Below are positions 2,027 through 30,629 of a stretch of DNA of 64,000 bases, one piece after another. The DNA lies in the NCBI GenBank assembly GCA_028819345.1, contig JAPPLW010000059.1, positions 3,890 to 67,889 of the forward strand, in the 5' to 3' direction. How positions within the stretch are numbered: position 1 is the first letter of the stretch; every line of letters starts with the position of its first letter. The translations under genes and the position numbers were made by a program. The DNA is from a bacterium. GTDB taxonomy: Bacteria; Actinomycetota; Acidimicrobiia; Spongiisociales; ZC4RG35. The notes under the pieces were generated by a model that saw only the letters and a list, made by a program, of their open reading frames with translations, searched no databases and had not been told where the DNA came from.

Positions 2027-2055
2027 AGACAGTCTTGTAGCAGGCGGCTCGGGAG

Positions 2056-8059: not shown

Positions 8060-8129
8060 CACCATTGGCGAACAGGAATACACTCGGCGCCTTGAGGACC
8101 AGTTTGTCGGTGATCAATTTGGCTGATTC

Positions 8130-8570: not shown

Positions 8571-8735
8571 CTTGCCTCTTCCCCCGGGGGGCGAAATGAC
8601 GAAGAGGGTCGAGAAGCTGGCCGAGTCGTAGAAGCAAACTCAACTCATAGAACTGGAGAAGGCGGTTTGCCGGTCCGAACCCTTCGCGTCACTTGGCCAG
8701 CACACCCACCTGACCTGTCGGTTGGTTGAAGGTCC

Positions 8736-9266
8736 TTAGCCAGGAAGAAAGTCCGGAGGACGCCGCCGCGCCGGCGCCTCGATTAGTTCGATGATCACGC
8801 CCAGTTCCGGCTCGGTGTCGATATAGGCGAATCCGCCGTCTCCGTCCAACCCGTGCCCGAAGCCTGCCATCAGTATCTCGTACCCAGCCTCTTGCATTGC
8901 CTCTACCTCGGTCTCGATCGAGTCGACCAGGATCCCCAGGTGGTGGAGACCCTCCCCCCGCCGCTCCAGCCAATCCTCGTAGATGTTGGGACCGGCCAGC
9001 GACTGGACCAACTCGATCTGCGGATTGGCGCCGGTCCAGGCGACCTTCATCCGATAATCAGCCGGCTTGCCCAGGTAGCTGAGGGAACGGACGTTGTCGG
9101 ATGAGTAGACGTATCCCCTCCAACCCTCGAGACCCCACATCGACCCGTACGTGTCCAGGGCGCGATCGATGTCCCTGACGACTATGCCGATCTGCCCCAC
9201 CGGCTTCCCACCGAGGATGGGGACCTCCCGGCGAACTGTCTCACCGAGCCCACTTCCGGATTTCAC
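8736..9266 (-). CDS. VOC family protein (glyoxalase / methylmalonyl-CoA epimerase-like)
   Basis: 176 aa with a paired beta-alpha-beta-beta-beta module pattern, HHLGILVDS motif. Confidence 0.6.
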   Translation of the reverse strand: MKSGSGLGETVRREVPILGGKPVGQIGIVVRDIDRALDTYGSMWGLEGWRGYVYSSDNVRSLSYLGKPADYRMKVAWTGANPQIELVQSLAGPNIYEDWLERRGEGLHHLGILVDSIETEVEAMQEAGYEILMAGFGHGLDGDGGFAYIDTEPELGVIIELIEAPARRRPPDFLPG

Positions 9267-9522
9267 CGACGCCTGCCCTTCCGACCAGTGCCGAGCCCAA
9301 GGCCACCGGTAGCGGATACCGTCCGGTCACACTCCCGGCATGCGGACCACGAGGACCGAAACCAGGGTATTCGATATGAGGTCATGGGAAAATCGTGTGC
9401 CTGCGTCGACGGGGGTGCTTGTGTTCGGAACTTTACAAGACCGTGCTGGAGAGGCGGCGGAGAAGTGGCGTCAGTAGAGTCTCGAGTGGGCACAGTTATC
9501 CATGCCGACCTGGGGGAATGCA

Positions 9523-12348: not shown

Positions 12349-12644
12349 CACTCGTCTCCTCCGTTCAAGAGCTCGGGCGCCCGACGAAGCGACCATGTGC
12401 AACCATGCCGTGCCGCGTTCCCGCTCGACGGCGTCGGGCCCAGGAATTATATCAATGCTGCCGGGTGGCCGGCCCCGGCATCTCCCCGACGACACCCGTC
12501 ACGGACCCTGTTGTGATATTTTGTCACATTCCTAAGATACGGCCCTATGTCAATTCGATCCCCCGGACCCGACCGGCGCCCTGGAGTGGCCGTCGACGGA
12601 GTAATGGCTACCGGCTGTGAGGCGAATCCGAGGCTGACTTACGC

Positions 12645-16833: not shown

Positions 16834-17097
16834 ATGAACCAACTGACCGTGAGGGGATTCGGCGACGAACTGGGCTCAGCGGTGCGTCGTCTGGCAGCTC
16901 GGGAGAGAATCTCTCTGAACCAAGCTGCACTGAGACTGCTGCGGCGGGGCGCCGGACTGGCCGAAGGCGCCGACACGGCAGAAAGGGTGGGGTCTTCCCT
17001 GGATCACCTAATAGGCAACTGGACTCTGGAAGAGGCCGATGAGTTGGATGCCGCGCTGGAAGATTTCGAGACCATCGACGCGGATGCCTGGAAGTGA
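16834..17097 (+). CDS. vapB: Type II antitoxin, RHH/CopG-like (VapB)
   Basis: Small protein MNQLTVRGFGDEL...ISLNQAALRLL. AGGAG lies 7 nt upstream of the ATG at 16834 (the track ORF opens at a TTG at 16810). GTGA overlap with the downstream PIN gene. Confidence 0.7.
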   Translation: MNQLTVRGFGDELGSAVRRLAARERISLNQAALRLLRRGAGLAEGADTAERVGSSLDHLIGNWTLEEADELDAALEDFETIDADAWK

Positions 17098-17492
17098 GGG
17101 TCCTGCTGGACTCCAACGCCTACTCCATGCTCATGCGGGGGCACGGGCAGGTCACCGAACTGGTTAGAAGGGCTGAGGAACTGTTGTTCTCCGCCGTTGT
17201 GGTCGGTGAGCTCCTTTACGGATTCCGGCGCGGATCCCGTTTCCAGCAAAACCTGGCCGACCTTCGCTCCGTCCTCGCCAGCCCGTATTCGTCGTTCGTG
17301 GAGGTGGGATCTGTAACAGCGGACCGCTACTCGCGGATCGCTGCATCCCTGCGGGCCAAGGGGCGTCCTATCCCTACCAACGATGTCTGGATAGCCGCCC
17401 ACACGATGGAGACCGGCGCCGATCTCGTTTCGGCCGATCAACACTTCGGACACATCGACGGCATAGTCTGGATACCGATCCCCGCCACCTAA
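17094..17492 (+). CDS. vapC: Type II toxin, PIN-domain ribonuclease (VapC)
   Basis: MRVLLDSNAY...D...NDVWIAAHT. PIN-domain acidic residues are in place. Overlaps the antitoxin stop. Confidence 0.8.
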   Translation: MRVLLDSNAYSMLMRGHGQVTELVRRAEELLFSAVVVGELLYGFRRGSRFQQNLADLRSVLASPYSSFVEVGSVTADRYSRIAASLRAKGRPIPTNDVWIAAHTMETGADLVSADQHFGHIDGIVWIPIPAT

Positions 17493-17503: not shown

Positions 17504-18616
17504 CTAGCGCATGGGCAGAAGCTGTGCGGGGTTGTTGATGATGATCTGTCTGATCACCTCGTTCGAGATTCCCTTCTTGCGCATGAACGGAACGATGCTC
17601 TCGAGGATGTAGTAGTAGCCGTGGCCGCCGTAGCGGGTCAGCCGGTGTTTGGTGCAGATGTCCTGTGAGATGAGGAGACGAGAGGCCGTGTCGCCCTCCA
17701 GCAGTTTCACCATCCGGTCGAGGCGCTGGCCGTCGCTCGGCATGTCGAAGGGCGTCGCTCCGTAGAACGAGGACTCGTGACCGAAGAGGTCGAACTGGAG
17801 ATAGCTTTCCAGGTCCAGCAACTCCCAGAGGATGCCGATGTCCTGCACCCGGAGATCGAGGTGTCCAAGCACCACCCGGCTCATGTCGGCGCCGGCTCCG
17901 ATCAGGACTTCGGCCACCTCCATCGGGGACCTCTGATCCCGGCCGGTGTGGGTGGTGATCGCCACACCGGTCTCCTTCTGTACCTGGGCTGCGGCAGCCA
18001 GGACTCGTCTTTCTCGCTCATGCAACGGCCAGGTACAGGCGATCTTGATGACCCCTGCCTTGACCGACGTATCTTCCTGGCGACCCTGCCAGTCGTCATG
18101 ACCCTCGGTGGTGATCTTGACGCCGTCCAGGACCTCCGAGCGCATCAGGTCCGCCAACTGTTCTTCGGTCATGTTGTGCATATAAGAAGGGTGGGTATGA
18201 GCGACGTAGAACCCGGTGGACATGATGATGTGGACACCGCTTGCGCGAGAGATCCGCGCCAGGCCGACCGGATCCCGACCTATGCCGGGAGGCGTGACCT
18301 CGACCACGGCGCCACCTCCCCACTCTCGATAGAGCCGCATCTCATCGATGGCCGTGGAGATGTCTCCCAGCAGGAGGTTGTCATGGTGGCGGAAGTAGTT
18401 CCGGCGGATCCAGGCCAGATTGTCAAGGCGGATCGGTTCGAATGCGCGGACCCTCTCGCTGGCGGTTCGGGGTGCCTCGAAGATGCCGGTGACGTCGCAC
18501 AGGATGTGCTCGTGCATCATGGTCGCACCCAGCAGATGGGCGTCCACCTTCCCCAGTACGGTCTGGACCTGCCCGGATGGCGCCTGGCCTGGCGTTTCGC
18601 TCATCGTTTCTCTCAA
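17504..18616 (-). CDS. Phosphotriesterase-related (PTE family) metal-dependent hydrolase
   Basis: HEH motif (MMHEHILCD), TIM-barrel amidohydrolase PTE/Php family, 370 aa. Confidence 0.75.
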   Translation of the reverse strand: MRETMSETPGQAPSGQVQTVLGKVDAHLLGATMMHEHILCDVTGIFEAPRTASERVRAFEPIRLDNLAWIRRNYFRHHDNLLLGDISTAIDEMRLYREWGGGAVVEVTPPGIGRDPVGLARISRASGVHIIMSTGFYVAHTHPSYMHNMTEEQLADLMRSEVLDGVKITTEGHDDWQGRQEDTSVKAGVIKIACTWPLHERERRVLAAAAQVQKETGVAITTHTGRDQRSPMEVAEVLIGAGADMSRVVLGHLDLRVQDIGILWELLDLESYLQFDLFGHESSFYGATPFDMPSDGQRLDRMVKLLEGDTASRLLISQDICTKHRLTRYGGHGYYYILESIVPFMRKKGISNEVIRQIIINNPAQLLPMR

Positions 18617-19767
18617 CCGGACGGAGCGAGGTGGCGCGCCACGTCCTCGAAGGCGGTCTGTATGCGTTCCATCTGCTGGTCATTGTGCACCGCCGAGGCG
18701 ATGAGACGGATTCGCGAAGTCCCCGGAGGGACGTAGGGCGGGAGGACGGCCCGTACGAAGATGCCGTGGTGGATGAGTAGGTCCTCGGCCATCTGGGCCT
18801 TGGAGGCGTCGCCGAACATCACGGGGATTATCGGGTGGACCTTATCAGGCACGGAGAACCCGAGCCGGGTCAATGAAGAGTTGATCGTGACCGCGTTCTC
18901 CCAGAGCCGGTCCAAACGCTCCGGCTCGGACCGCATAACCCGTAGCGCCTCGAGCGCCGCCGCCGCGGCCACCGGAGAGGGGGCGGTCGTGAAAAGGAAC
19001 GTGCGGCACACCTTGCTCAAGTAGCCGATCACGTCCGACGACCCGGTGGCGAAGGCGCCGACGCTGCCCAACGCCTTCCCGAGTGTTCCCACTATCACAT
19101 CGGCTCGGTCAGCCCGTTGGTAATGGCCTGTCGAGCCCTTCCCGCCGGAGCCCAGGACGCCGGTGGCATGAGCGTCGTCCAAAACGAGCATGGCGTCATG
19201 CTTGTCGGCCAGGTCGGCTATCTCGTCCACCGGAGCGAGCGTGCCGTTCATCGAGAAGACACTGTCGGTTACCACCAGGCTCTTTCCGGAAGCCCCATCG
19301 AGTTGGTGACCCAGGTCCTCCGCGTCACAGTGCCGGTAGACCCTTATCTCGGCGCCGCTCAACCTGGCGCCGTCAATGATGCTGGCGTGATTGAGTTCGT
19401 CGCTGCACACGGTATCTCCCCTTCCGGGAAAAGCGGAGACAACCCCCAGGTTGGCCGCGTACCCGGATGCGAACAGGAGCGCTGATTCGGCTGCCTTCAG
19501 ATCCGCCAGTTCCTCCTCGAGTTCTCGATGTATCGCGGTGTCCCCTCCAACGTGGCGGGACGCCCGGGCTCCCGCTCCGAAGGTCGTCAGGGCGGCCTGT
19601 GCGGCAGCGATGACCCTGGGATCGGAAGCCAGGCCGAGGTAATCGTTCAGCCCAAGGGCGATGTGGGTGCGTCCCGCATGGTGGATCTCGCCGGGCCGGA
19701 CTACGTCGGAGGCGGGATCGGACGGCGGCCAGACGGCGGCCTGATCGGTAATGCGGTCCCGAATCAT
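18613..19767 (-). CDS. PLP-dependent alpha-oxoamine synthase (2-amino-3-ketobutyrate CoA ligase / 8-amino-7-oxononanoate synthase family)
   Basis: Class-II aminotransferase fold. SDELNHASIIDG and SMNGT motifs are typical of Kbl/BioF. 4-nt overlap with the PTE-family gene. Confidence 0.8.
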   Translation of the reverse strand: MIRDRITDQAAVWPPSDPASDVVRPGEIHHAGRTHIALGLNDYLGLASDPRVIAAAQAALTTFGAGARASRHVGGDTAIHRELEEELADLKAAESALLFASGYAANLGVVSAFPGRGDTVCSDELNHASIIDGARLSGAEIRVYRHCDAEDLGHQLDGASGKSLVVTDSVFSMNGTLAPVDEIADLADKHDAMLVLDDAHATGVLGSGGKGSTGHYQRADRADVIVGTLGKALGSVGAFATGSSDVIGYLSKVCRTFLFTTAPSPVAAAAALEALRVMRSEPERLDRLWENAVTINSSLTRLGFSVPDKVHPIIPVMFGDASKAQMAEDLLIHHGIFVRAVLPPYVPPGTSRIRLIASAVHNDQQMERIQTAFEDVARHLAPSG

Positions 19768-19852
19768 CTCACACCTTCCTTCGGCACAAATGGCATTTCC
19801 TCACCGCCTTCCTCCAGCAAGGGGGATCCTGATTGCTCATAGCGGCTCAACA

Positions 19853-21418
19853 TCACCTTCGCAGCACCCGCCCGGGCCGGGTCCCCGAGAGCCTACCGGC
19901 CAGCATCACGGGCTTCCCGTTGACCAGCACGTGCTCCATTCCCTCAGCCAACACATTCGGCTCGTACCTGGTTGCCTTTTCGCGGAAAACCGCCGGGTCG
20001 AATACTGCGACGTCGGCGAAGGCCTTCGGTCTCAGCACGCCGCGGTCGGAGAGGCCGAGGCGGTCGGCCGGAAGGCCGGACAGTCGGCGTACCGCTTCGC
20101 TCGGTGAGAGGAATCCCTCCGGGCCGGCAGAGAAGTTGTAGAAGTAGGAGGCCCAGGTGTATGCACCGTGGAACGTACCTCCCGCAAGGGGACCGTCGGG
20201 CGCCATGGTGGTGGCGTCGGAGGCCGGCATAGCCAGCGGGTGGGCGAAAGCCCTCCGCTGCTGGTCGGCGCTGTGACAGTCGATCAGGACCATCAGGGAG
20301 CCCATGGTCTCGATCGCTCCCAGCAACAGGTCGTAGATGCAGTCCAGTGCCTCCTGTCCCCGCTCGGCGGCGATCGATCCGATCGACCGGCGGCCGTAGT
20401 CGGGATAGGCGTCATGGTCCAGCAATTCGATACGCTCCCAGTCGCCGCCTGCGCTGAGGATGCTTCGGAAGTCCTTCATCTCCCGGCGTGCGTCGCTGCT
20501 TCGGAGCACGGAAGCGAGTCCGTCGACACCGCCGGCCATCGCCCATGGGGGAAGCACCGAGTAGAGATAGGTGAACCCGAACAGGCGGGTGTGCACGTCG
20601 AATGCGATGTCCAGGCCCTCATGGCGGGCCTCGTCGACCATTTCCAGGCATTGTTCCATCTCGGCGTCGCCGCTTCGGGGAACCAGGTGGGAGACCTGGA
20701 GCCTCACCCCGGCGGCCCTGGCGGTCCTGATCGCCTCGGCCACCCCCTCGGGCGCGCCGGCGTCACGGTAGCGGGCATGGCAGACGTACAGGTCGTCCCG
20801 CTCGGCGAGCGGAGCGCACAGCTTGGTGACCTCCGACTCGGAAGCGCCGGCCTCGGTTGCGTACTCGAGGCCGGTCGAGAGGCCCCAAGCGCCCTCTTCC
20901 AGCGCGGTGGCGAGAAGTCGGGCCATGCGGTCCAGCTCCCCTTCCGTTGACAGCCGGTCGGTCAGGCCCACTTCGGCCAGGCGGAGTTGACCATGGGGGA
21001 CCATGCTCATGACGTTCAGGGCCGGCTCCGCCTGCTCGAGCCGGGAGAAGTAGCCCGAGGCGGAGTCCCAATCGAGGGGGACCGACTCCGAGTAGCCGTA
21101 TATCGCCTTCAGGGCGAGTTCGCGGTCCCGGATGGGAAAGCATCCATGGCCGCAGTTGCCGACCACCTCCGTGGTGACTCCCTGGTGGATGGCGCTGACT
21201 GCCCGGGGGTCGGCCAGGAGGGTGTAGTCGGAATGGCTGTGGATGTCGATGAATCCCGGCGTCACGAACAGTCCCGTGGCGTCCAGTTCCTCACCCTGGC
21301 GTGAATCCAGGTCCCCTATCGCGGCGATACGTTCGCCAACGATGCCTACATCGGCCCGCCGGGGATCACCGCCGGTTCCGTCCAGTACGGTGCCGCCCCG
21401 AATGATGTAGTCAAACAT
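19853..21418 (-). CDS. D-aminoacylase-type amidohydrolase (N-acyl-D-amino-acid deacylase family)
   Basis: MFDYIIRGGTVLDG...TPGFIDIHSHSD. 521 aa, D-aminoacylase-like architecture. Confidence 0.75.
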   Translation of the reverse strand: MFDYIIRGGTVLDGTGGDPRRADVGIVGERIAAIGDLDSRQGEELDATGLFVTPGFIDIHSHSDYTLLADPRAVSAIHQGVTTEVVGNCGHGCFPIRDRELALKAIYGYSESVPLDWDSASGYFSRLEQAEPALNVMSMVPHGQLRLAEVGLTDRLSTEGELDRMARLLATALEEGAWGLSTGLEYATEAGASESEVTKLCAPLAERDDLYVCHARYRDAGAPEGVAEAIRTARAAGVRLQVSHLVPRSGDAEMEQCLEMVDEARHEGLDIAFDVHTRLFGFTYLYSVLPPWAMAGGVDGLASVLRSSDARREMKDFRSILSAGGDWERIELLDHDAYPDYGRRSIGSIAAERGQEALDCIYDLLLGAIETMGSLMVLIDCHSADQQRRAFAHPLAMPASDATTMAPDGPLAGGTFHGAYTWASYFYNFSAGPEGFLSPSEAVRRLSGLPADRLGLSDRGVLRPKAFADVAVFDPAVFREKATRYEPNVLAEGMEHVLVNGKPVMLAGRLSGTRPGRVLRR

Positions 21419-21584
21419 GTCCCGGTGAATGCCTTCGAGTCAAGTCTTCAAGTGGCCGGTCTTGCAACTGATAACGGCGCTGTCATGTAGGTGGGAGGCG
21501 CCGAATCGTCGTCGGGTAAGGGGCAAAAATATCGCTCCACCCCCTGACCGCGGCAGGGGTGCGTGGCTACCATGGCTGATATAT

Positions 21585-21608
21585 GTTACACAATGCATAT
21601 TGTGCAAC
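21585..21608. promoter_or_regulatory. 24-bp near-perfect palindrome GTTACACAATGCATATTGTGCAAC in the divergent intergenic region
   Basis: 9 of 10 positions match between the two arms. Lies between the divergent D-aminoacylase operon and the ABC/amidase/GntR operon. GT-N-AC cores fit a GntR-family operator. Confidence 0.5.
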
Positions 21609-21711
21609 AGGCAGGAGCGCCGGCTTCCGCTGACCATCGCTGCTGCTCTCCATAAAGACCATTGGAGTGACATATCGAGCAGTGTCACGTCCGATAGGAA
21701 GGATTGAACAG

Positions 21712-22782
21712 ATGCCTAAGAAATACTTACGAAGTCTCGTAGCTGTCATCATCGCTCTCGCCATGGTGGCGGCAGCCTGCGGTGAGGATGAGCCCGCAGA
21801 GACCACGGCGGCGCCAACCACAACCGCCGCTCCGACTACCACCGCGGCTCCCGAGGAAGAGCCGATTCGTATCGGGCTGGTCATTCCCGACTTCACCCAG
21901 AACGAGCTGATCCTTGCCCTGAAGACCGGCGCGGACGACGCCGCTGCCGACTACGGCGTGGAACTGTTGGTGACAGGTAGCGGTAGCGCCCAGGATCTGG
22001 TGGCAGCCGTCGAGAACTACGCGGCTGCAGGTGTTGACGTGATCGTCTATGACACGATCGACGCCCAGGCCCTGGCGCCTGCGATTCTCGCCTTGAACGA
22101 CGCCGGCATTCCGGTGGTCTGCACGGTTGCCTGTGCTTCCGAGGGCGTCAGCGCCATCGAGATCGGCTACGACTACCGGACCGACATGGGACGGCCGCTC
22201 GGTGATTGGCTGGCCGCTTACGAGCCGGCGCCGAAGAAACTCGCCTTCATCGACTCCAACCAGGCCGATGAATCGATCGCTGCCATCTACGCCGGAATCG
22301 AAGACGGCCTGGAAGCCGGTGGACTGACTGACGTCGAGAGGGTTGTATCCCCACCCACCAACTGGGACCGGGCGGCAGGCCTCGACGCGGCAAGGTCACT
22401 GCTGACCGCCCACCCGGATGTGGACATCATCGTGGGCTTGCATGACCTCCTGGCCGGGGCGACCCTGACCGCCATGGAGGAGCTGGGTTACAAGGAGACC
22501 ACTTTGACCGGTCTCGGCGGCACCTGCGAAGGCCTCATGAACATTCTTGAGGGCCGCCAGGCGCTCACCGTGATCCAACCGCTCTATCCGGCCGGCTACC
22601 TGGCCGTTGAAGCGGCCGTCAAGATCGCCCAGGGAGAAACCATGACAGAGGACTTCATCCCGATCGGCATGGTGGTGGTCGACAAGGCGTTCGCCGAAGG
22701 CGTGCTGGACGGTTCGGAAGAGCCCGTGCAGAGCGGTGTTGACCTCAAGACAGCACTGGACGCCGCAGCGGCTGGTTGCTAA
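21712..22782 (+). CDS. ABC transporter substrate-binding lipoprotein, periplasmic-binding-protein type 1 (ribose/sugar-binding-like fold)
   Basis: MPKKYLRSLVAVIIALAMVAAAC lipobox, then a Thr/Ala/Pro-rich linker and a PBP1 fold (IGLVIPD...). Start chosen at the ATG at 21712 rather than the upstream ORF start. Confidence 0.75.
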   Translation: MPKKYLRSLVAVIIALAMVAAACGEDEPAETTAAPTTTAAPTTTAAPEEEPIRIGLVIPDFTQNELILALKTGADDAAADYGVELLVTGSGSAQDLVAAVENYAAAGVDVIVYDTIDAQALAPAILALNDAGIPVVCTVACASEGVSAIEIGYDYRTDMGRPLGDWLAAYEPAPKKLAFIDSNQADESIAAIYAGIEDGLEAGGLTDVERVVSPPTNWDRAAGLDAARSLLTAHPDVDIIVGLHDLLAGATLTAMEELGYKETTLTGLGGTCEGLMNILEGRQALTVIQPLYPAGYLAVEAAVKIAQGETMTEDFIPIGMVVVDKAFAEGVLDGSEEPVQSGVDLKTALDAAAAGC

Positions 22783-22811
22783 ACACCGACAACTTCTAAC
22801 CCATTAGGTGA

Positions 22812-22859
22812 CGATGGCTCCCTCCTGCCAATCCAAGAGATGCGGCGGGAGGGAGCCAT
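22812..22859 (+). other. Intra-operon stem-loop (13-bp stem GATGGCTCCCTCC / GGGAGGGAGCCATC)
   Basis: Inverted repeat between the binding-protein gene and the permease gene. This is a typical partial terminator that sets a high binding-protein-to-permease ratio. Confidence 0.45.
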
Positions 22860-22918
22860 CGGCCTGATCCTGGGCTCGTTAGAGTCCGCATAGGGACAAA
22901 GAGCGGCTTGAAAGAAGT

Positions 22919-23950
22919 GTGAGTTTCGTGGTTGACTCGAATCAGGCGCAAGCGAGCGAGGGGCCCGCAAGGGTGCGACGTGGCTTGATCAGATACCGGC
23001 AACTGTGGGCGTTGTTGATTGCGGTTCTGCTCCTTTGGACTTACCTGAGCTTTGCCAGCCCCTACTTCATGACCGTGCAGAACCTGACCAACATCGCTTT
23101 GCAGAGTTCGGTGGTGGGGATCATGGCGGTCGGGTTCACCATCCTGCTGATCGGCGGAGAGATCGACCTGGCGATCGGCTCCACCCAGGCCCTGGCCGGA
23201 ACCATGGCCGCACTGCTCATCATCCAACGCGAACTGCCGATCTGGGCCGGGGTACTGATAGTGCTGGGCATGGGCCTGATCGTCGGGAACGTGAACGGGT
23301 ACTTCTCCCTGTTCACAAAGGTCCCGTCGTTCATCGTCACGCTGGCCATGCTGGGGGTCCTCCAGGGCCTTGCCTTCGTGATGACCAGCGGACAGACGAT
23401 CGGTGGGTTCCCGGAAGCCTTCAAAGTCCTGGGTCACGGCAAGGTGGGGGTGATCCCGCTACCGGTGATCATCTTCTTTTCGGTCACCGTGGTCGTGCAA
23501 CTGGTGCTGAGCCACACACGATACGGCGTGGAACTGTACGCCACCGGTGGCAATCGGGAGGCGGCGGAACTGGTGGGCATAAGCGTCAGGAGGGTCTTGA
23601 TGCTGGCCTTCATCGCCAGTTCGATGCTGTGCACCCTGGCGGGGCTGGTGCTGAGCGCCCGGCTGAACGCCGGCCACGGCTCCTTCGGATCGGAGTCGCT
23701 GCTCGATGCGGTGGCGGCGGTGATCATCGGGGGGACATCGCTGAACGGCGGCGCCGGCAATACGTTCGGGACGCTTCTGGGGATCATCCTGATAAGCACC
23801 ATCAAGAACGGCCTGATCCTGCTGGGGGTGGATCCGTTCTGGCAGCAGGTGGCGGTCGGCGCCCTGATCCTGGCAGCAGTCCTGGTGGACAAGACCATCA
23901 AGGGCGAACTGGCGCCGGGAGACCTCCTGCCCAGGTTGGTGAGACGATGA
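22919..23950 (+). CDS. ABC transporter permease (RbsC/branched sugar-type, CUT2 family)
   Basis: About 10 TM segments with CUT2-permease-like sequence (GGEIDLAIGS...). Confidence 0.8.
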   Translation: MSFVVDSNQAQASEGPARVRRGLIRYRQLWALLIAVLLLWTYLSFASPYFMTVQNLTNIALQSSVVGIMAVGFTILLIGGEIDLAIGSTQALAGTMAALLIIQRELPIWAGVLIVLGMGLIVGNVNGYFSLFTKVPSFIVTLAMLGVLQGLAFVMTSGQTIGGFPEAFKVLGHGKVGVIPLPVIIFFSVTVVVQLVLSHTRYGVELYATGGNREAAELVGISVRRVLMLAFIASSMLCTLAGLVLSARLNAGHGSFGSESLLDAVAAVIIGGTSLNGGAGNTFGTLLGIILISTIKNGLILLGVDPFWQQVAVGALILAAVLVDKTIKGELAPGDLLPRLVRR

Positions 23951-24738
23951 CTGTGTCCGCTCCCCCGGGCATGAGCGGGCCCAACGGGAACGGCGCCCTC
24001 GACCGGATTCCCGGGCCGGTGATGATGGCCAGGGGCGTCCACAAGTCCTTCGGCCAGGTACGCGCCCTGATCGACGCCACGTTTCAGGTCGACGAGGGAG
24101 AGACCGTGGCGATAGTGGGTGACAACGGCGCCGGCAAGTCGACGCTGGTCAAGATCCTGACCGGCGCCATACAACCGGATACCGGCTCCCTCGAACTGGA
24201 CGGTACGGAGGTGAGTTTCCGAACCACCCGGGACTCTTTGCAACTGGGGGTGACGGCGGTCTATCAGAACCTGGCGCTGGCCGACAACATGACCGTGGCC
24301 GAAAACGTGTTCCTGGGCCGGGTGCCTACCCGATGGCTCAGGGTGGACCGCCGGAGGATGGAAAAGGAGTCGGCGGAACTCCTCGACTCCCTGGCGATCA
24401 ACGTGCCCGACGTCAGAGCACGGACGGCATTGCTGTCGGGTGGACAGCGTCAGGCGGTGGCGATCGCCCGGGCCTTCCGGTCCGGCCGGAGGCTGATGAT
24501 CCTGGACGAGCCGACCGCAGCCCTGGGAGTCCAGGAGGGCCAGAAGGTCTTGGACATCATCGAAGGGCTCAAGGGACAGAGGGTCTCGATCATCGTGGTC
24601 AGTCACAACCTCGACCACGTGTTCCGGGTGGCTGATCGAATCGTGGTGATGAGGGGAGGCCGGATTGTGGGTTCACGCCGAAAGGAAGAAACGACCACCG
24701 CCGACATCGTCCATCTGATAGTGGGAACCCGGGAGTGA
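23947..24738 (+). CDS. ABC transporter ATP-binding protein (single nucleotide-binding domain)
   Basis: ATGA overlap with the permease. Walker A GDNGAGKST, signature LSGGQRQAV. Only 263 aa, so a single NBD. Confidence 0.85.
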   Translation: MTVSAPPGMSGPNGNGALDRIPGPVMMARGVHKSFGQVRALIDATFQVDEGETVAIVGDNGAGKSTLVKILTGAIQPDTGSLELDGTEVSFRTTRDSLQLGVTAVYQNLALADNMTVAENVFLGRVPTRWLRVDRRRMEKESAELLDSLAINVPDVRARTALLSGGQRQAVAIARAFRSGRRLMILDEPTAALGVQEGQKVLDIIEGLKGQRVSIIVVSHNLDHVFRVADRIVVMRGGRIVGSRRKEETTTADIVHLIVGTRE

Positions 24739-24778
24739 GGCGGTCGATGTCGGTGGTAAGGAACGGTTGGGAGAGAAA

Positions 24779-26338
24779 ATGACTCGAATGGAACGCAACC
24801 GCCGGACCGTCCGGCCTCCCTCGGCTGGAGACATAGAGGAGACGGCGGCTCACGACGGGATCGAGCTCGCCGGAGGGGAAGCCGAGGAACTCTCCGGCAT
24901 AGTCACCGCCCTGGTGATGGCCGCCGGAGACGCCGACCGCTTCAACCCGCCGGAAGTCCCCACCTTCCAGACTTCGCGTGATCCCGGTCGACGGCCTTCG
25001 GTGACCGACGACCCCCTGAACGCCTTCATCCGGATGTGCGACGTGCAGGGCGCCGACCAGGGTCCCCTTTCGGGTTGGCGGCTGGGCGTGAAGGACAACA
25101 TCGCAGTGGCCGGGGTGCCGATGACCAACGGGTCCGTCTTCCCTCCGTTCGTCCCCACGCTGGACTCGGTCGTCGTCGAGAGGATGCTCAAAGCCGGGGG
25201 ATCGATCGTGGGCACACTCAACATGGACGACCACGGCGGCGGAGCCACCGGGGTGATGAGCGCTTTCGGCCCGGCCCGCAACCCGCTCGACCCGTCGCGG
25301 ACCGCGGGGGGTTCGTCGGGGGGTGCGGGGTCAGCGGTGGCGTCAGGAGCCGTCGACGGCGCTCTGGGAGTGGACCAGGGCGGAAGCGGCCGGATACCCG
25401 CGGCATGCTGTGGAGTGGCGACGGTCAAGGCCACCCACGGCCTCATTCCCACCTTCGGTGTGACCCCGATCGACCACAGCATCGACTACGTGACACCACT
25501 TGCCCGCTCGGTTAGGGAAGTCGCCATCCTGCTGGAGGTGATCGCCGGCGAGGACTGGCGCGATCCCCAGGGGATCCACATTCCCATCGAGATCCCCGAG
25601 TACCGGCGCGCCGAAGGAGAAGGCGTCGCCGGTCTTCGGATCGGGTTGATCGACGAAAGCGTCACGGGCGTCGACTGCGAGCCGGTGGTGGTCGAAACGA
25701 TCAATGACGCGGTGGGGGCACTGGAGCAGGCCGGCGCCGAGGTTGAGAGGATCTCCTTCCGGGAGTGGAGCGAGGCCTCCAGCATATTCGGGCCCTACGT
25801 GGCCCACCTGGTTGGCAACATGCTGAGGACCGAGGGGGGCAGCCACGGTCACATGGGATACATCGACGTCGACCGGATGCATGCCTTCGCCACCAGCCGG
25901 CGCGCCCAGTCCCGCGAGCTGAACCCCTACGTCAAGTGCTGGACCATCGCCAGCCGGTACCTGATGGAGCGGTACATGAACGTCCCGTTCGGCCGCTTGC
26001 ACAATGCGCGGCTCGAGTCGCGGCGGCGCATAAGCGAACTGCTGGGCACATGGGACCTGCTGATCACGCCCACCATCCCGTTCACTGCGCCGAAACTGCC
26101 CGAGGCCCCCACACCGATCGCCGACCTCCTGGCGGACTCCAAAGCCAGTGTGGCGTTCAACACATCGCCGCTCAACATGTCGGGGCATCCGGCCATGGCG
26201 GTGCCCGGTTTGTATGACTCCGACGGTCTGCCCGCCTCGGTACAGATCGTCGCCGCTCACTTCGACGAATTCACCGCCTTCCGGGCGGCCTTCGTACTCG
26301 AGGAGTACTTTGCCGGGCGGAAGCCCGAGTCGGCCTGA
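24779..26338 (+). CDS. Amidase (amidase-signature family)
   Basis: GGSSGGAGSAVA amidase-signature motif and the Ser-cisSer-Lys region. The track ORF starts at a TTG at 24767; the ATG at 24779 follows GGAGAG. Confidence 0.85.
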   Translation: MTRMERNRRTVRPPSAGDIEETAAHDGIELAGGEAEELSGIVTALVMAAGDADRFNPPEVPTFQTSRDPGRRPSVTDDPLNAFIRMCDVQGADQGPLSGWRLGVKDNIAVAGVPMTNGSVFPPFVPTLDSVVVERMLKAGGSIVGTLNMDDHGGGATGVMSAFGPARNPLDPSRTAGGSSGGAGSAVASGAVDGALGVDQGGSGRIPAACCGVATVKATHGLIPTFGVTPIDHSIDYVTPLARSVREVAILLEVIAGEDWRDPQGIHIPIEIPEYRRAEGEGVAGLRIGLIDESVTGVDCEPVVVETINDAVGALEQAGAEVERISFREWSEASSIFGPYVAHLVGNMLRTEGGSHGHMGYIDVDRMHAFATSRRAQSRELNPYVKCWTIASRYLMERYMNVPFGRLHNARLESRRRISELLGTWDLLITPTIPFTAPKLPEAPTPIADLLADSKASVAFNTSPLNMSGHPAMAVPGLYDSDGLPASVQIVAAHFDEFTAFRAAFVLEEYFAGRKPESA

Positions 26339-26341
26339 GAC

Positions 26342-27682
26342 ATGACCTTCCGGGGGCCTTTGGAGAGGCGGGCCCTCGAGTATCTGTGGATTCACGAGAG
26401 TCCGCGCTCCGAACTGGTGGACCACGACATGCTGAGGGTGTTCGACCGGGGTGAGGGAGCATGGCTCTGGGACACCCGGGGCGATCGCTACTTCGACCTC
26501 TGCTCGTCGATGTGGCAGACGCCTCTCGGGCATGGTCGATCCGACATCACCGCGGCAATGGCCGAACAGGCCCGCAACGTAGCCACCGCCGGGCCGATCT
26601 TCTTCACCACCCGGGGAGCGGTGGAACTGGCCGAGCGGCTGGCGGCGTCGGCGCCGGGGGATCTTCAACACTCGTTTCTCACCAGTTCCGGCTCGGAGGC
26701 CACCGAGACCGCCATCAAACTGGCCCGCCAGTATCACCGCATACGGGGCGATCACCATCGCTACAAGGTCATATCCCGCTATGGCTCGTATCACGGGGCC
26801 GGAGCGGGAGGCCTGGCCATGTCGGGCCGTCGACACCGCGACTCCATGTACTACCCGTTGATGCCGGGAGGAGTGCACGTCATGCCCCCGACGGGGACCT
26901 CCGACCTCCAATATGCCGAACAGATCCGGGAAGTGATCGAACTGGAGGGACCCGAGACGGTGGCGGCGGTTATCGGAGAACCGGTGGCGATCACCGAGTT
27001 CCGGATCCCGGATGAGACCTACTGGCCCCGGGTGAGAGAGATATGTGACTCCTACGGCGTCTTGCTGATAGCCGACGAGACGCTGGTGGGGTGCTGTCGG
27101 AGCGGGCGGATGTGGGCGATCGAACACTGGAACGTGGTGCCGGATGTGATGGTGGTGGCCAAGGCCTTGAGCGGCGGATACGCTCCGGTGGCCGCCATGA
27201 TCGTCCGAGAGCACATCTTCTCGGCGTTCGGCCGTGACACGGGCTCTCCCTCGGTCCAGAGCTACGGGGGCCACGGCGCAAGCGCCGCGGCGGCCGCCAA
27301 GGCGATGGAGATCTATGTGACAGAGCGCATGGACCTGGTCGCCGAGAGCCTGGGCGCGGACCTGTATGGAATGTTGAGCGAAGCCGGAGTCAGGGAGTTT
27401 CCGGTCGTGGGAGATGTACGGCGGTTCGGCCTGTGGATCGGGATCGAACTTGTCAACCCGGTGACCGGCGAGTCCTACGCCACCGGGATTAAGGGCAGGT
27501 ACGAGGTGGCCAAAGAACTCAGCCGGCGGTTGTTGAGACTCGGCTGCGCGGCGGCTCGGATGTCGGAGGGGATCCTGCACGTGGCCCCTCCGTATGTGTC
27601 AACCTCAGAGGACCTCGACTTCGTCGCCGAATCGGTGTTTTCCGTCTTAGGCGAGATGTCCGATATGCTATCTCAAGGCTGA
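26342..27682 (+). CDS. Class-III (omega) aminotransferase, PLP-dependent
   Basis: SGSEATETAIKLAR and the overall aminotransferase class-III sequence, similar to beta-alanine/omega-amino-acid:pyruvate transaminases. Confidence 0.85.
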   Translation: MTFRGPLERRALEYLWIHESPRSELVDHDMLRVFDRGEGAWLWDTRGDRYFDLCSSMWQTPLGHGRSDITAAMAEQARNVATAGPIFFTTRGAVELAERLAASAPGDLQHSFLTSSGSEATETAIKLARQYHRIRGDHHRYKVISRYGSYHGAGAGGLAMSGRRHRDSMYYPLMPGGVHVMPPTGTSDLQYAEQIREVIELEGPETVAAVIGEPVAITEFRIPDETYWPRVREICDSYGVLLIADETLVGCCRSGRMWAIEHWNVVPDVMVVAKALSGGYAPVAAMIVREHIFSAFGRDTGSPSVQSYGGHGASAAAAAKAMEIYVTERMDLVAESLGADLYGMLSEAGVREFPVVGDVRRFGLWIGIELVNPVTGESYATGIKGRYEVAKELSRRLLRLGCAAARMSEGILHVAPPYVSTSEDLDFVAESVFSVLGEMSDMLSQG

Positions 27683-27711
27683 GAGACGACTCGACGAAAG
27701 GGGCGACGAGG

Positions 27712-28380
27712 TTGCAGCACAACTGGACCATAGAACAGCGGATTACCAAGGAGCTTCGAGACCTCATAGTGGCAGGGGAACTCGAACCGGGCGTCCGGGT
27801 CCGCTATCGGGATCTTGCCGAGCAGTTCGGGGTCAGTGTTACGCCGGTTCGCGCCGCGGTGCGGGAACTGGCGCACGAGGGGTTGATCGACGCCCGCCCC
27901 AACTCCGCCAACTACGTGTCTCCGCTGTCACTCGATGAGATCGAACAGCTGTACCTGGCCAGGATGGGGTTTGAATCGTGGCTGGCCCGCCTGGGGGCTC
28001 CCCGCCTGTCGAGCCAGGGCTTGAGCGTGATGGAGGAGAGGCTCCAGAGGTTCCAGGCGGCCGCCGAGCAAAGCAAAACCGAATGCCTGATGGACATCGC
28101 CTGGGAGATGCGGTCGGTCTGTTACGAGGCCGCCGATCGTCCCAGCCTGCTGCAAAAGGCGGCGGACCTTTACGATCGCTCCCGCCGTTACACCCATCGG
28201 ACACTGATGGTTGCTTCCCGACGCCAAAGGTCGGCAGTCGTGGCGAAGGCCTTTTACGGCGCCTGCCTGGAGCGCGACGGCAGTCTGGCTGCGGAGACCA
28301 TCCGGGGGGCACTTGAGGTGACCTTCCAAGATCTCCTCAGCATGATCGACCCGGCGGAAAACGGGCAACTGGCCTCCTAG
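27712..28380 (+). CDS. GntR family transcriptional regulator (FadR/FCD subfamily)
   Basis: N-terminal wHTH (LAEQFGVSVTPVRAAVRELAHEGLI) plus an FCD-type C-terminal domain. Last gene of the operon. Confidence 0.85.
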   Translation: MQHNWTIEQRITKELRDLIVAGELEPGVRVRYRDLAEQFGVSVTPVRAAVRELAHEGLIDARPNSANYVSPLSLDEIEQLYLARMGFESWLARLGAPRLSSQGLSVMEERLQRFQAAAEQSKTECLMDIAWEMRSVCYEAADRPSLLQKAADLYDRSRRYTHRTLMVASRRQRSAVVAKAFYGACLERDGSLAAETIRGALEVTFQDLLSMIDPAENGQLAS

Positions 28381-28430
28381 ACGGTCGGCTGCGATACCGG
28401 CCTCCGGGCCGGGGCCCCGTGGCGGGGAAC

Positions 28431-29330
28431 CTACTCGGGAGCCCTGCCCACTTCGGCGCCCATCATGTGCTCCAAGGCCTTGACCAGGGCGTGCTGACCC
28501 TCCGATCCCAGACCCCGGTGCTGCAGCGACCGGTAGAGCTGGAACACCAGACCAGTGGTCGGCAGGGGAACGCCCAACTCGTCCCCCGCCTCCAGGACCA
28601 GGCGGATGTCCTTCTGCTGAAGGTCGATGGTGAATCCCGGGCGCCAGTCCCGAACGATCATCTGCGGTCCCCGGTTGGCCAGCATCCACGAGTTGGCCGC
28701 ACCACCGGTCAGAGCCGACAGGGCTGTCTCCAGGTCCAGCCCGCCCGCGTCGGCCAGCAGCAACGCCTCACACGCCGCTTGCATGTTCACCACCACCAGC
28801 ACCTGGTTCACCAGCTTCACCATCTGTCCCGACCCCACCGGACCGACATGGGTGATGGTTTTTCCCATCGCATCCAGATAGGGGCGCACCCTATCCAGAT
28901 CGGAGGCGTCGCCTCCCACCATGATCGACAGGGTCCCAAGCTCCGCTCCTTCGCTTCCGCCGCTCACCGGACCGTCCAGCCAGGAGCCTCCCGCCTCGGA
29001 GGCCAGACCTGCCAGACGCCGGGTCTCTGACGGGCTGATGGTGGAGTGGTCGACAACCAACGAACCCGGGGACAGCCCGGCCAGGATCCCGTCGGGCCCT
29101 TCGGTGACAGCTACCACGTCGGGAGTGTCGGCAACGCAGATCAACACCACGGTGGATTGTTCCGCCACTTCCCGGGGCGACCCCGCCGGCGAGGCGCCCA
29201 GGTCGGTCACCGGCGCCATCTTGGAAGCGGTGCGGTTCCACACCGTCACCTCGAAGCCGGCGCGCACCAGGTTGGCGGCCATCCCTCCCCCCATGATCCC
29301 CAGCCCGATGAATCCAAGCTTCTCACTCAC
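28431..29330 (-). CDS. NAD-dependent 3-hydroxyisobutyrate dehydrogenase family reductase
   Basis: Start SEKLGFIGLGIMGG (Rossmann fold) and HIBADH-family catalytic region. Start chosen at the GTG at 29330, which has AAGGAG 5 nt upstream; the ORF track extends to 29354. Confidence 0.8.
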   Translation of the reverse strand: MSEKLGFIGLGIMGGGMAANLVRAGFEVTVWNRTASKMAPVTDLGASPAGSPREVAEQSTVVLICVADTPDVVAVTEGPDGILAGLSPGSLVVDHSTISPSETRRLAGLASEAGGSWLDGPVSGGSEGAELGTLSIMVGGDASDLDRVRPYLDAMGKTITHVGPVGSGQMVKLVNQVLVVVNMQAACEALLLADAGGLDLETALSALTGGAANSWMLANRGPQMIVRDWRPGFTIDLQQKDIRLVLEAGDELGVPLPTTGLVFQLYRSLQHRGLGSEGQHALVKALEHMMGAEVGRAPE

Positions 29331-29495
29331 TCGATCTCCTTTCTCTCCCATCACAACCGGCGCCTGTCCACCCTCCAGGTTCGGGCAGGCGCCGAAGCAA
29401 CTCTTCTATCAGGCTTTCCCTTTCGAGGGTACCAACCCGGGGCCGCCCCCTGCACGGAAGGAGGACCCCCTCTTCCACCCGGCAGGGAGGTCCGG

Positions 29496-30629
29496 TCAGT
29501 AGATGCCGGGAAAGATCCGGTACTTGACCCGTTCCTGGTACTCGGCCCACTTCTCGGGGCCGTACTTCTCGGCGCAGAACCGTTCATCGTAGATTTGACG
29601 CGTCGTGAAGAACGAGACTATGAAGATGAAGTAGGTCCAGGCCCAGAGATTGCCGATGTAGCCGAACACCAGGGAGATCGAGAGGGCCAGGAACCCCTCG
29701 CCCAGGTAATTGAAGTGCCGGGCGACGCCCCAGAAACCGCTGCACAGGATCTTGCGGTCGCCCGCCTTGATGTGCACCGGGTCGATGAGCCCCAGGAACT
29801 TGCGGTCGGGCCACCGCTTGAACGTGTACTTCTGCAGATTGGCGCCCCGGCCGATCGCCCATCCCCCCAGGAACAGCACGGGCGTTCCGATCAACCAGAC
29901 ATACCTGAACGGCCCCGAGAACCCGGGGTCCGGGTGGACGGCCATGCCCCATAGGGGAAGGATGTACAGCCACCCGTAGACGATGAGCCCACCCCACATC
30001 AGCTTGAAACCGAGATTCTCGTGGATGAGGTCGTAGGTGTAAAGCTGGACTCGCTCGAAGACGAAGTAGTCCATGATGTAGAAGGTGAAGAACGCCGCAT
30101 ACAGGAAGACGCCGGGATTGGAGTCCTCACCGAATAGCTCGTAGTGATAAGCGGCTCCCGACAGGGCGTTCAATGCGAACATCGCCCCGCCGACCACGTA
30201 CAGGTACATCTTGACGTCGACCCCGAGGAACGACACCTCCCGGGCACGGCCCTCCCACAGCGCCAGCCACGTGTTCTCGTTCTCGCCCTTCGGCTGGCTG
30301 AACACCACCGCCAGGGTGAGGATCACGGCCAGGACGGTCCCGCCGGCCACGGCGTAGACCGAGGACCGGTAGAACCAGGCTCGCTCCATCCCGGTGAGTT
30401 CGAAGGCCCAAACGACCAGCACCACCACGTAGACCAAGAGACCGTTCAGCCGGTAGCGGCGAGGTTCGCCGGTCGCCGGATCGGTGACGTAGCCGGGCAC
30501 CCTTCGGGCCGGCAGTATCAGCTGCAACAGGAAGAACACTGCGAAAACCACCAGCGGGGTGAGGAACCCCGCGATCGCCTCCGAGCCGGAGAGTTCGAAA
30601 AGGTGGTCGATGCCGAGCCATTCAATCAC
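29496..30629 (-). CDS. Sterol reductase family membrane protein (ERG4/ERG24, 7-dehydrocholesterol reductase-like)
   Basis: Polytopic membrane protein. C-terminal signature GFWGVARHFNYLGEGF...YDERFCAEKYGPEKWAEYQERVKYRIFPGIY matches the eukaryotic sterol-reductase signature almost residue for residue. Confidence 0.8.
   Translation of the reverse strand: MIEWLGIDHLFELSGSEAIAGFLTPLVVFAVFFLLQLILPARRVPGYVTDPATGEPRRYRLNGLLVYVVVLVVWAFELTGMERAWFYRSSVYAVAGGTVLAVILTLAVVFSQPKGENENTWLALWEGRAREVSFLGVDVKMYLYVVGGAMFALNALSGAAYHYELFGEDSNPGVFLYAAFFTFYIMDYFVFERVQLYTYDLIHENLGFKLMWGGLIVYGWLYILPLWGMAVHPDPGFSGPFRYVWLIGTPVLFLGGWAIGRGANLQKYTFKRWPDRKFLGLIDPVHIKAGDRKILCSGFWGVARHFNYLGEGFLALSISLVFGYIGNLWAWTYFIFIVSFFTTRQIYDERFCAEKYGPEKWAEYQERVKYRIFPGIY

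Follow-up and report, generated by a model that had tools for sequence, protein, structure and literature searches.

The ribose importer RbsABC of Escherichia coli (CUT2 class, TC 3.A.1.2) is an ATP-binding cassette (ABC) system with an ATPase of two fused nucleotide-binding domains (NBDs), and its operon partners are RbsK and RbsD. Other CUT2-type systems have a single NBD, FrcBCA of Sinorhizobium meliloti being an example; they combine one binding protein with one permease and an ATPase of ~260 amino acids (aa), and are linked to enzymes acting on sugars or sugar acids. Lactams are degraded in Pseudomonas by the caprolactam/valerolactam route, which employs an ATP-dependent two-subunit lactamase (CapAB or OplBA), an omega-transaminase and a semialdehyde dehydrogenase (PMC6061476, PMC8453981, bioRxiv 10.1101/2021.12.09.472016). 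The present analysis concerns a 64,000-nucleotide (nt) stretch of an Acidimicrobiia genome (GenBank assembly GCA_028819345.1, contig JAPPLW010000059.1, positions 3,890 to 67,889 of the forward strand), hereafter the window, in which elements of these systems are brought together. A binding protein, one permease and one single-domain ATPase form what their sequences identify as a CUT2-derived ABC importer, encoded with an amidase, an omega-transaminase and a GntR-type regulator; this operon is the right-hand half of an island at ~12.5–28.4 kb that also encodes a HyuAB-type hydantoinase/lactamase and several amidohydrolases. With moderate confidence we assign to this island the role of a GntR-repressed system for a small cyclic ureide, lactam or N-acyl/N-carbamoyl amino compound, and our confidence in any single compound as ligand is much lower.

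Six genes on the + strand, at 21712–28380, encode in this order the binding protein, permease, ATPase, amidase, transaminase and GntR/FCD regulator (Table 1). The permease and ATPase genes overlap by 4 nt, and the gaps between ATPase and amidase, amidase and transaminase, and transaminase and regulator are 28, 3 and 29 nt, respectively, so that the cluster reads as a single operon with the regulator last. The start of the amidase gene has an alternative ATG at 24779. With respect to RbsABC, the window system has in common the binding-protein fold, a BPD_transp_2 permease and an ATPase nearest in sequence to CUT2, and it differs in having one NBD instead of two fused NBDs, in its binding protein, a probable lipoprotein with a Thr/Ala/Pro-rich linker and without equivalents of RbsB D89, R90, R141 and D215, and in its operon partners, i.e., an amidase and a transaminase, not RbsK and RbsD. 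The best NCBIfam matches of the permease are GguB (219 bits), RbsC (211 bits) and AraH, all under the equivalog cut-offs, and the same pattern holds for the transporter components in general, which score highest against sugar systems, yet far below every equivalog cut-off. The simplest arrangement, deduced from the presence of one permease gene and one ATPase gene, would be a 2+2 transporter made of two homodimers.

The ATPase carries its Walker A (GDNGAGKST), signature (LSGGQRQ) and Walker B (LMILDEPT) motifs and aligns to positions 2–236 of the 492-position YtfR model, i.e., the N-terminal half of CUT2 ATPases. No second ATPase half exists, because the amidase gene starts 28 nt downstream, and the fused double-NBD organization (~500 aa) of CUT2 ATPases is absent from the protein. 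The best 120 relatives are all 243–279 aa long, at 55–98% identity, and many of them bear the name ABC-type sugar transport system ATPase subunit. A single NBD thus marks a sub-type, and leaves the kinship with CUT2 standing. An unrelated cluster likewise encodes, in a row, a GntR/FCD regulator, a 264-aa ATPase, a permease and a Peripla_BP_4 protein, together with enolase-superfamily and Amidohydro_2 genes. As in the single-NBD CUT2-type systems mentioned above, the window has one binding protein, one permease and one ~260-aa ATPase; unlike theirs, its genetic partners are amide- and lactam-hydrolyzing enzymes. A preliminary description of this locus had named the six genes, all of which are present according to Pfam and NCBIfam, and had called the binding protein and permease CUT2-like, in agreement with the Peripla_BP_4, BPD_transp_2 and RbsB/RbsC-type matches; its view of the single-NBD ATPase as an anomaly does not hold, as this architecture is the ordinary one among the relatives.

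The binding protein finds ribose-binding proteins in profile searches (E = 3e-41), its AlphaFold2 model (mean predicted local confidence, pLDDT, 87.5) matches 1drj and 2ioy, with Foldseek template modeling (TM) scores of 0.69/0.89 to 1drj, and its sequence is ~26% identical to that of E. coli RbsB. Its top NCBIfam match is RbsB, at 83 bits against a cut-off of 337. The family to which it belongs is small, comprising ~11 clusters above 44% identity in a search of 5.8 billion proteins and 232 representatives at E ≤ 1e-30 in a search of 1.84 billion; it is rare, and it travels with the same set of hydrolases in distant lineages. Many relatives (P0176, P0177, P0183, P0187 and others) are 570–690 aa long with two matched stretches, i.e., they are tandem-duplicated binding proteins.

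According to two independent alignments, RbsB D89, R90, R141 and D215 are replaced by V, A, I and G throughout the close members of the family, and N190 and F164 by H and W. Retained are N13, Q235 and an aromatic residue, Trp, at the position of F164. The Asp/Arg clamp that holds the sugar hydroxyls in RbsB is thus missing from the pocket. A set of invariant polar residues (D60, N183, D186, T216, N217, D219, H244, D245) is peculiar to the family, which has no invariant Arg or Lys. Separately, invariant or nearly invariant cysteines are seen in a CxxxC motif at 137/141, in the place of RbsB D89/R90, at Cys272 and at the C-terminal Cys356; they suggest disulfides or metal binding, atypical for sugar-binding proteins.

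The locus may be read as an ordinary importer of monosaccharides or polyols (ribose/xylose/fructose type) that happens to be encoded beside unrelated nitrogen-catabolic genes. Such a reading would account for the fold, for profile matches headed by ribose-binding proteins, for the preference of permease and ATPase for sugar systems, and for relatives named ribose transport system or sugar ABC transporter. It is, however, very unlikely, since the equivalog scores are all far under their cut-offs, the four charged residues of the sugar clamp have been exchanged, the amidase and transaminase genes are tightly spaced within the operon, and the same hydrolase linkage is found in ~13 rearranged contexts across phyla, where the annotated neighbors included no sugar kinase in any context. 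The loss of pocket charges, the linkage to amide- and lactam-hydrolyzing enzymes and the lack of a visible sugar kinase together make it probable that the ligand is not a sugar; a monosaccharide is unlikely.

To define this linkage, the window's neighbor genes were mapped onto 44 related loci (designated L and a number), among which ~13 independent contexts were counted that span Acidimicrobiia, Alphaproteobacteria, Chloroflexota, Verrucomicrobia and environmental contigs. The most frequent neighbor of the binding-protein family is a phosphotriesterase (PTE)-family gene resembling PTER, the phosphotriesterase-related protein of animals, which is found in 10 of the 13 contexts. It is followed by the amidase (7/13), HyuAB (6/13), the Kbl-like and D-aminoacylase-like genes (5/13 each) and the transaminase (3/13). 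The same gene set returns in shuffled orders across the related loci. L036 has, on one strand, transaminase, PTE, HyuA, HyuB, D-aminoacylase-like, Kbl-like, binding protein, permease, ATPase and PTE genes, and L028, also on one strand, binding protein, permease, ATPase, transaminase, PTE, HyuA, HyuB and D-aminoacylase-like genes; L002 has binding protein, permease, a 247-aa ATPase, amidase, HyuA and HyuB, with PTE and GntR genes alongside. The transporter is followed directly by PTE in L030, L032, L035 and L044 and by the amidase in L023 (Chloroflexota), and the binding-protein gene of L004 (Verrucomicrobia) lies beside three PTE genes and a Kbl-like gene. The Kbl-like gene accompanies the binding protein in L004, L030, L032 and L036, and the D-aminoacylase-like gene does so in L028, L032 and L036. 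L004, L030 and L035 combine transporter and PTE with a DAO-type FAD oxidase and an HpcH/HpaI aldolase instead of transaminase and Kbl-like enzyme, which hints that they are alternative downstream routes for the same released amine. L022 is broken up by transposases and uninformative. Signs of decay are seen in L001, where the class-III transaminase gene is split by an insertion sequence element (L001 14640–16790).

These contexts change the view of the locus in several respects. The preliminary description had confined the unit to 21585–28380, and it is larger, taking in the divergent operon at 17504–21418 and hyuAB at 12645–16576. Amidase and transaminase had been singled out as the telling partners of the transporter; their linkage does recur, in seven and three of the 13 contexts, and yet the most faithful partner is the PTER-like gene. 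The proposal that the substrate is an amide or amino compound and not a sugar is probable, because of the conserved linkage to amide- and lactam-hydrolyzing enzymes over the ~13 contexts and the loss of the four charged residues that contact ribose, and the ligands suggested at the time (hydantoins, ureido acids and beta-amino acids) are a good fit to the wider gene context. The core idea survives, without its emphasis on the ATPase and without its boundaries.

The top NCBIfam model for HyuA is CapA, at 513 bits, and HyuB matches CapB at 286 bits; both scores are far under the equivalog cut-offs of 1000 and give no ground for equating the pair with a characterized caprolactamase, N-methylhydantoinase or 5-oxoprolinase. 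Hydantoinase_A and Hydantoinase_B are the Pfam labels in the orthologous locus L001. The enzyme logic of the island is that of caprolactam catabolism; apart from the low CapA score, it differs by the addition of three amidohydrolases, a Kbl-like enzyme and a dedicated sugar-type ABC importer, and by a regulator of a different type. Among solved chains, HyuA is nearest to N-methylhydantoinase 7hk5 (458 bits), then to 6yra (380 bits), and the succession of ring opening and decarbamoylation by an amidase in the hyu/N-methylhydantoinase pathways matches the pairing of hyuAB and amidase in the island. The known N-carbamoylsarcosine amidase and the L- and D-carbamoylases belong to families other than the amidase-signature family, and hydantoins, for which NCS1 permeases are used, are not known to have a CUT2-type importer. 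The island's amidase carries the amidase-signature motifs GVKDN, GGSSGG and DQGGSGRIP; it scores 391 bits with PRK07235, under the cut-off of 545, and its nearest solved chain is 3a1k (248 bits), which we take to be the amidase of Rhodococcus sp. N-771. The nearest solved chains of the transaminase are amine and omega transaminases, with no equivalog cut-off reached. For the Amidohydro_3 protein, the nearest solved chains are N-acyl-D-glutamate deacylase 3gip (200 bits) and D-aminoacylase.

The PTER-like protein aligns over its full length with chain 9efa (37% identity, 232 bits, residues 14–367 on 8–353), helical insertion included. This chain bears the label phosphotriesterase-related protein and probably corresponds to the sponge PTER described in PMC12873775. 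The window protein retains Y137, R226 and Y285 as well as five of the six metal ligands (H35, H37, H223, H252, D319), and the bridging Glu174 of sponge PTER is Lys, as in bacterial PTEs. His206, Arg209, Tyr268 and Tyr131 of sponge PTER are kept, Arg238 and His305 are Leu and Cys, and the gate residues Phe34 and Phe270 are Val and Ala. Of these, His206, Arg209, Arg238 and Tyr268 form the taurine-sulfonate pocket, and His305 is the proposed proton donor (PMC12873775). The protein thus resembles animal PTER in its full-length homology, its helical insertion typical of eukaryotic PTER and its metal ligands, it is distinct from classical bacterial phosphotriesterases, and it differs from the animal protein in that its gene shares a bacterial operon with those for the Kbl-like and D-aminoacylase-like enzymes. 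E. coli Php and the php (yhfS–Z) operon were considered as an analogous combination of PTE and pyridoxal phosphate (PLP) enzyme, and rejected, as Php is 27% identical and lacks the PTER insertion, and YhfS is unrelated to the Kbl-like enzyme (E = 1.7).

PTER hydrolyzes N-acetyltaurine (PMC12873775, PMC11374699) and acts on N-acetyl-beta-alanine as well (PMC13311154). The imported compound could therefore be an N-acyl omega-amino acid or sulfonate of this kind, which would be deacylated by the PTER-like enzyme, the released taurine or beta-alanine being consumed by transaminase and semialdehyde dehydrogenase, with HyuAB and the amidase as side branches. The PTER-like gene as the most faithful partner of the transporter, often directly downstream, the conserved R226, Y285, Y137 and metal ligands, and the presence of an omega-transaminase and of a bona fide (methyl)malonate-semialdehyde dehydrogenase (TIGR01722, 744 bits against a cut-off of 448) speak for such a substrate. 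We nevertheless judge it unlikely: Arg238 and His305 are lost, the binding protein lacks an invariant Arg or Lys for an anionic group, no sulfoacetaldehyde-processing gene was seen in the scanned part of the window, and HyuAB and the Kbl-like and D-aminoacylase-like enzymes would be left without a role. The semialdehyde dehydrogenase and the HIBADH-family dehydrogenase, whose genes flank the island in this clade, and the omega-transaminase would suit a beta-amino acid as product. The semialdehyde dehydrogenase gene lies next to hyuA in the window and apparently in L005 too, where the sequence 5′ of hyuA aligns with that of the window; the gene was not recovered there by tblastn.

It is conceivable, too, that the nitrogen is attached to a sugar, i.e., that an amide, lactam or lactone derived from a sugar is taken up, such as an opine- or Amadori-type conjugate or ribosylurea, of which the binding protein would recognize the polyol moiety while HyuAB, PTE and the amidases process the nitrogen part. 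The ribose-binding fold, the retention of N64, W218 and Q289, and the many invariant Asp, Asn and Thr residues would find an explanation here. HyuAB homologs open the lactam of agropinic acid on Ti plasmids, and the PTE family includes sugar-lactone lactonases, a phospho-furanose lactonase being among the NCBIfam matches. In the alphaproteobacterial locus L020 (5300–8051), furthermore, a paralog of the binding protein lies directly downstream, and on the same strand, of genes for a GTP-cyclohydrolase-II-like protein, DUF1688 and uracil phosphoribosyltransferase (UPRTase), and is followed by HyuAB and several amidases; the upstream trio corresponds to URC1, URC4 and URC6 of the yeast uracil pathway, which proceeds via ribosylurea. 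A sugar-derived ligand is nonetheless quite improbable in view of the loss of the charged sugar-clamping residues and the absence of a kinase or evident sugar-processing enzyme in most contexts, and the URC linkage occurs in one paralogous locus only.

Compared with these alternatives, a cyclic ureide or lactam (of the hydantoin, dihydropyrimidine or pyrrolidone type) or a related N-acyl/N-carbamoyl amino compound is the most likely class of ligand. The CUT2-derived system would import a small, polar, nitrogen-rich amide, HyuAB would open the ring at the expense of ATP, and the amidase, PTER-like and D-aminoacylase-like hydrolases would remove carbamoyl, acyl or amide groups. The freed amine would be taken off by the omega-transaminase, or in other lineages by the DAO-type oxidase, and the carbon skeleton would be cleaved by the Kbl-like enzyme, or elsewhere by the HpcH aldolase; in the window's own clade, the semialdehyde and hydroxyacid dehydrogenases would pass the product to central metabolism. 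The Kbl-like protein matches bioF (TIGR00858, 387 bits against a cut-off of 426) and Kbl (368 bits). A reversed biotin pathway, with BioF-like and BioA-like enzymes and ring opening by HyuAB, and schemes based on beta-hydroxy-D-amino acids were considered for it and are not asserted here.

With respect to regulation, the palindrome GTTACACAATGCATATTGTGCAAC is found exactly at 21585–21608, where the preliminary description had placed it, 103 nt upstream of the binding-protein gene and 166 nt from the start codon of the divergent operon, and is unique in the window; a search for a second copy in the window at up to three mismatches found none. Extended by one nucleotide on either side it gives site S2 (Table 1), an imperfect palindrome with 11-nt arms (21584–21594 and 21599–21609) that are complementary at 10 of 11 positions and separated by a 4-nt spacer. 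Inverted repeats of this quality are not rare, the window containing 14 against 12.1 expected from Markov simulations, and S2 is taken as genuine because it is conserved. In an alignment of the intergenic regions of 16 orthologous loci, whose binding proteins are 83–99% identical to that of the window, all 12 top-ranked conservation windows overlap S2, and the top 14-mer (21581–21594) has a pairwise identity of 0.965 compared with a region-wide mean of 0.695. The conserved core consists of ATATGTTACACAAT on the left and TTGTG on the right, the outer right arm CAACA varies between loci, and both arms of ACACAAT-N4-RTTGTG are present in all orthologs. The elements CTGACC and TACCAT, conserved in the 16 loci, are inferred from conserved TANNNT-type words to be a −35/−10 pair, which would put S2 just past the transcription start, in a classical repressor position; consensus promoter and terminator scans of 21300–28700 called nothing useful. 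In L010, an insertion of ~340 bp in the operator-bearing intergenic region and a truncated ATPase gene are seen (L010 9365–10001, 12283–12732).

A loose search with the left arm led, via a match at 12518–12529, to a further palindrome, S1, in the gap that separates hyuA from the semialdehyde dehydrogenase gene. Across nine loci S1 hardly varies, though the upstream sequence is unrelated between most of them and is alignable 5′ of hyuA only between the window and L005. A conserved TAAGAT comes after S1. In a distant Acidimicrobiia metagenome-assembled genome (MAG; L002/L019), whose binding protein and HyuA are 46% and 71% identical to those of the window, CCGTGATATGTTGTCACAT precedes hyuA and the S1-like TTGTGACATGTTATACAT precedes the binding-protein gene. 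The GntR/FCD ortholog of L002 is 45% identical, with the same polar residues S, T, R and R in the recognition-helix segment. A third S1-like inverted repeat, GTGACAT-N8-GTGTCAC, lies in the 5′ leader at 21666–21688; its left half and the left arm of S2 are reverse complements of each other, and it is moderately conserved as GACA...TGTCAC.

The window regulator has a GntR domain (PF00392, 57 bits, residues 9–69) and an FCD domain (PF07729, 46 bits, residues 79–200), and is the only regulator conserved in the island. It has in common with the FadR/FCD repressors a winged-helix GntR domain joined to FCD, its encoding within the cluster and AT-rich palindromes of TGT-N3-ACA type at the promoters; it departs from them in having two candidate sites with differing half-site arrangement. 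Both S1 and S2 are promoter-proximal and contain TGT-N3-ACA-like words. The conservation of the sites, the GntR ortholog kept in L002 and the lack of another conserved regulator make GntR the obvious candidate for both S1 and S2. It would repress its own operon through S2, just 3′ of the promoter-like elements, and hyuAB through S1, which overlaps the putative hyuA promoter, and would be released by the substrate or an intermediate. Of the earlier proposal that the palindrome is the GntR operator, the conserved regulatory element and the reasonable assignment to GntR stand; binding of GntR to it is predicted from sequence comparison, and a control of the divergent operon by S2, which had been proposed as well, is conjectural.

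That S2 is instead a promoter core, or the site of another, unlinked regulator, seems somewhat unlikely to us. The strictly conserved part is asymmetric (ATATGTTACACAAT against TTGTG, with the variable outer right arm), the left arm holds the −10-like words CACAAT and TATGTT, and palindromes of such quality occur at chance frequency in the window, all of which would fit such a role. It would, however, leave unexplained that both arms of ACACAAT-N4-RTTGTG persist in all orthologs, that a related palindrome occurs at the hyuA promoter, also in the distant genome that keeps GntR, and that the sole conserved regulator of the island is encoded in the operon behind S2.

Several observations weigh against an amide/lactam island under GntR control. 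The assignment of a substrate class derives from gene context, and the role of the Kbl-like enzyme in it is unexplained. Outside the close Acidimicrobiia clade, there is little conservation of the genes for transaminase, GntR, HIBADH-like protein and semialdehyde dehydrogenase. Since the binding protein retains N64, W218 and Q289, along with many invariant polar residues, a polyol-like ligand or a sugar-derived amide is still conceivable, and the ribose contacts used in the comparison with RbsB are those that we take to be described for 2DRI. As to the operators, the TTGTG/CACAA words are oppositely arranged in S1 (TGTGATA-N3-TGTCACA) and S2 (ACACAAT-N4-ATTGTG), inverted in the one and everted in the other, and because of this difference one regulator for both sites is not assured. 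The S1 and S2 patterns were not found in L004, L020–L023 and L028–L036, and the operator model therefore does not extend beyond Acidimicrobiia.

Table 1 Features of the island and their positions in the window
Feature	Position	Strand	Remarks
CoA-acylating (methyl)malonate-semialdehyde dehydrogenase	10855–12348	−	TIGR01722; divergent from hyuA
S1 palindrome TTGTGATATTTTGTCACAT, candidate operator 5′ of hyuA	12511–12529		overlaps promoter-like TTGTGA/TAAGAT pair
hyuA, alpha subunit of ATP-dependent hydantoinase/lactamase	12645–14756	+	CapA, 513 bits
hyuB, beta subunit	14753–16576	+	CapB, 286 bits; 4-nt overlap with hyuA
PTER-type binuclear-metal amidohydrolase (PTE family)	17504–18616	−	PF02126, 233 bits
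Kbl/BioF-like alpha-oxoamine synthase (PLP)	18613–19767	−	TIGR00858; 4-nt overlap with PTER-like gene
D-aminoacylase-like Amidohydro_3 hydrolase	19853–21418	−	PF07969; first in divergent operon
Promoter-like pair	21544–21573	+	CTGACC 21544–21549, 18 nt, TACCAT 21568–21573; both conserved in 16 loci
S2 palindrome TGTTACACAAT-GCAT-ATTGTGCAACA, candidate GntR operator	21584–21609		top-conserved intergenic block
Substrate-binding protein (probable lipoprotein), type I fold, divergent clade	21712–22782	+	Peripla_BP_4 PF13407, 135 bits
Intercistronic hairpin, 18 bp, GC-rich	22812–22861	+	directly 3′ of binding-protein stop codon; minimum free energy z-score −6.2
Permease, CUT2 type	22919–23950	+	BPD_transp_2 PF02653, 130 bits
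Single-NBD ABC ATPase, 263 aa	23947–24738	+	one ABC_tran domain
Amidase-signature amidase	24767–26338	+	PF01425, 269 bits
Class-III (omega) aminotransferase	26342–27682	+	PF00202, 251 bits
GntR regulator, FadR/FCD type	27712–28380	+	PF00392 + PF07729; final operon gene
HIBADH-family beta-hydroxyacid dehydrogenase	28431–29354	−	conserved neighbor in close clade only

Between the binding-protein and permease genes, the transcript can form a hairpin (Table 1) that each of 10 orthologous loci shares, three compensatory pairs being seen among them. It has no U-tract, and Rfam gave chance-level miRNA matches only; it probably shields the transcript or partly terminates it, lifting the expression of the binding protein above that of the membrane parts. 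A scan of the whole window with Rfam at gathering thresholds gave no family, and no riboswitch was found in the 5′ leader.

Among the surroundings of the island genes, a VapB-like/VapC (PIN) toxin–antitoxin pair lies between hyuB and the PTER-like gene (16834–17492), and in L001 a RES/Xre pair occupies the matching slot, so that this junction looks like a hot spot for such cassettes. Upstream, 311–10824 holds a peptide/opine-type ABC system (SBP_bac_5, oligo_HPY ATPase), a glyoxalase-family gene and a further amidohydrolase; the region is generally rich in genes for the uptake and hydrolysis of nitrogen compounds. An open reading frame of the ERG4/ERG24 sterol-reductase family (112 bits) is found at 29496–30629 on the − strand.

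The transporter is thus a clade of sugar-family importers with a remodeled pocket and amide-catabolic partners, and not a new type of machine. We hold it tentatively possible that a clade of ribose-binding proteins has been retargeted to a cyclic ureide, lactam or N-acyl amino compound and constitutes, with the PTER ortholog, HyuAB and the D-aminoacylase-like and Kbl-like enzymes, an undescribed pathway found across phyla. The closest relatives of the window are MAGs labeled Acidimicrobiia, and the isolate names in this close clade suggest that they may come from sponge metagenomes. The substrate of the window's clade could be a metabolite of an animal host such as N-acetyltaurine or a hydantoin or dihydropyrimidine derived from creatinine or pyrimidines.

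Automatic annotation labels the system a ribose/sugar transporter, and the present data suggest that this label is wrong for the whole binding-protein clade, an error that would carry over into metabolic reconstructions of these uncultured bacteria. The island offers a testable entry to an uncharacterized amide/lactam catabolic pathway that recurs in several phyla, with one soluble lipoprotein, one regulator and two candidate operators as concrete handles. The pathway holds bacterial relatives of PTER, for which the physiological substrate in animals became known only in 2024, and if the ligand is a nitrogen compound derived from the host, the island would have a bearing on nutrient exchange in animal–microbe symbioses.

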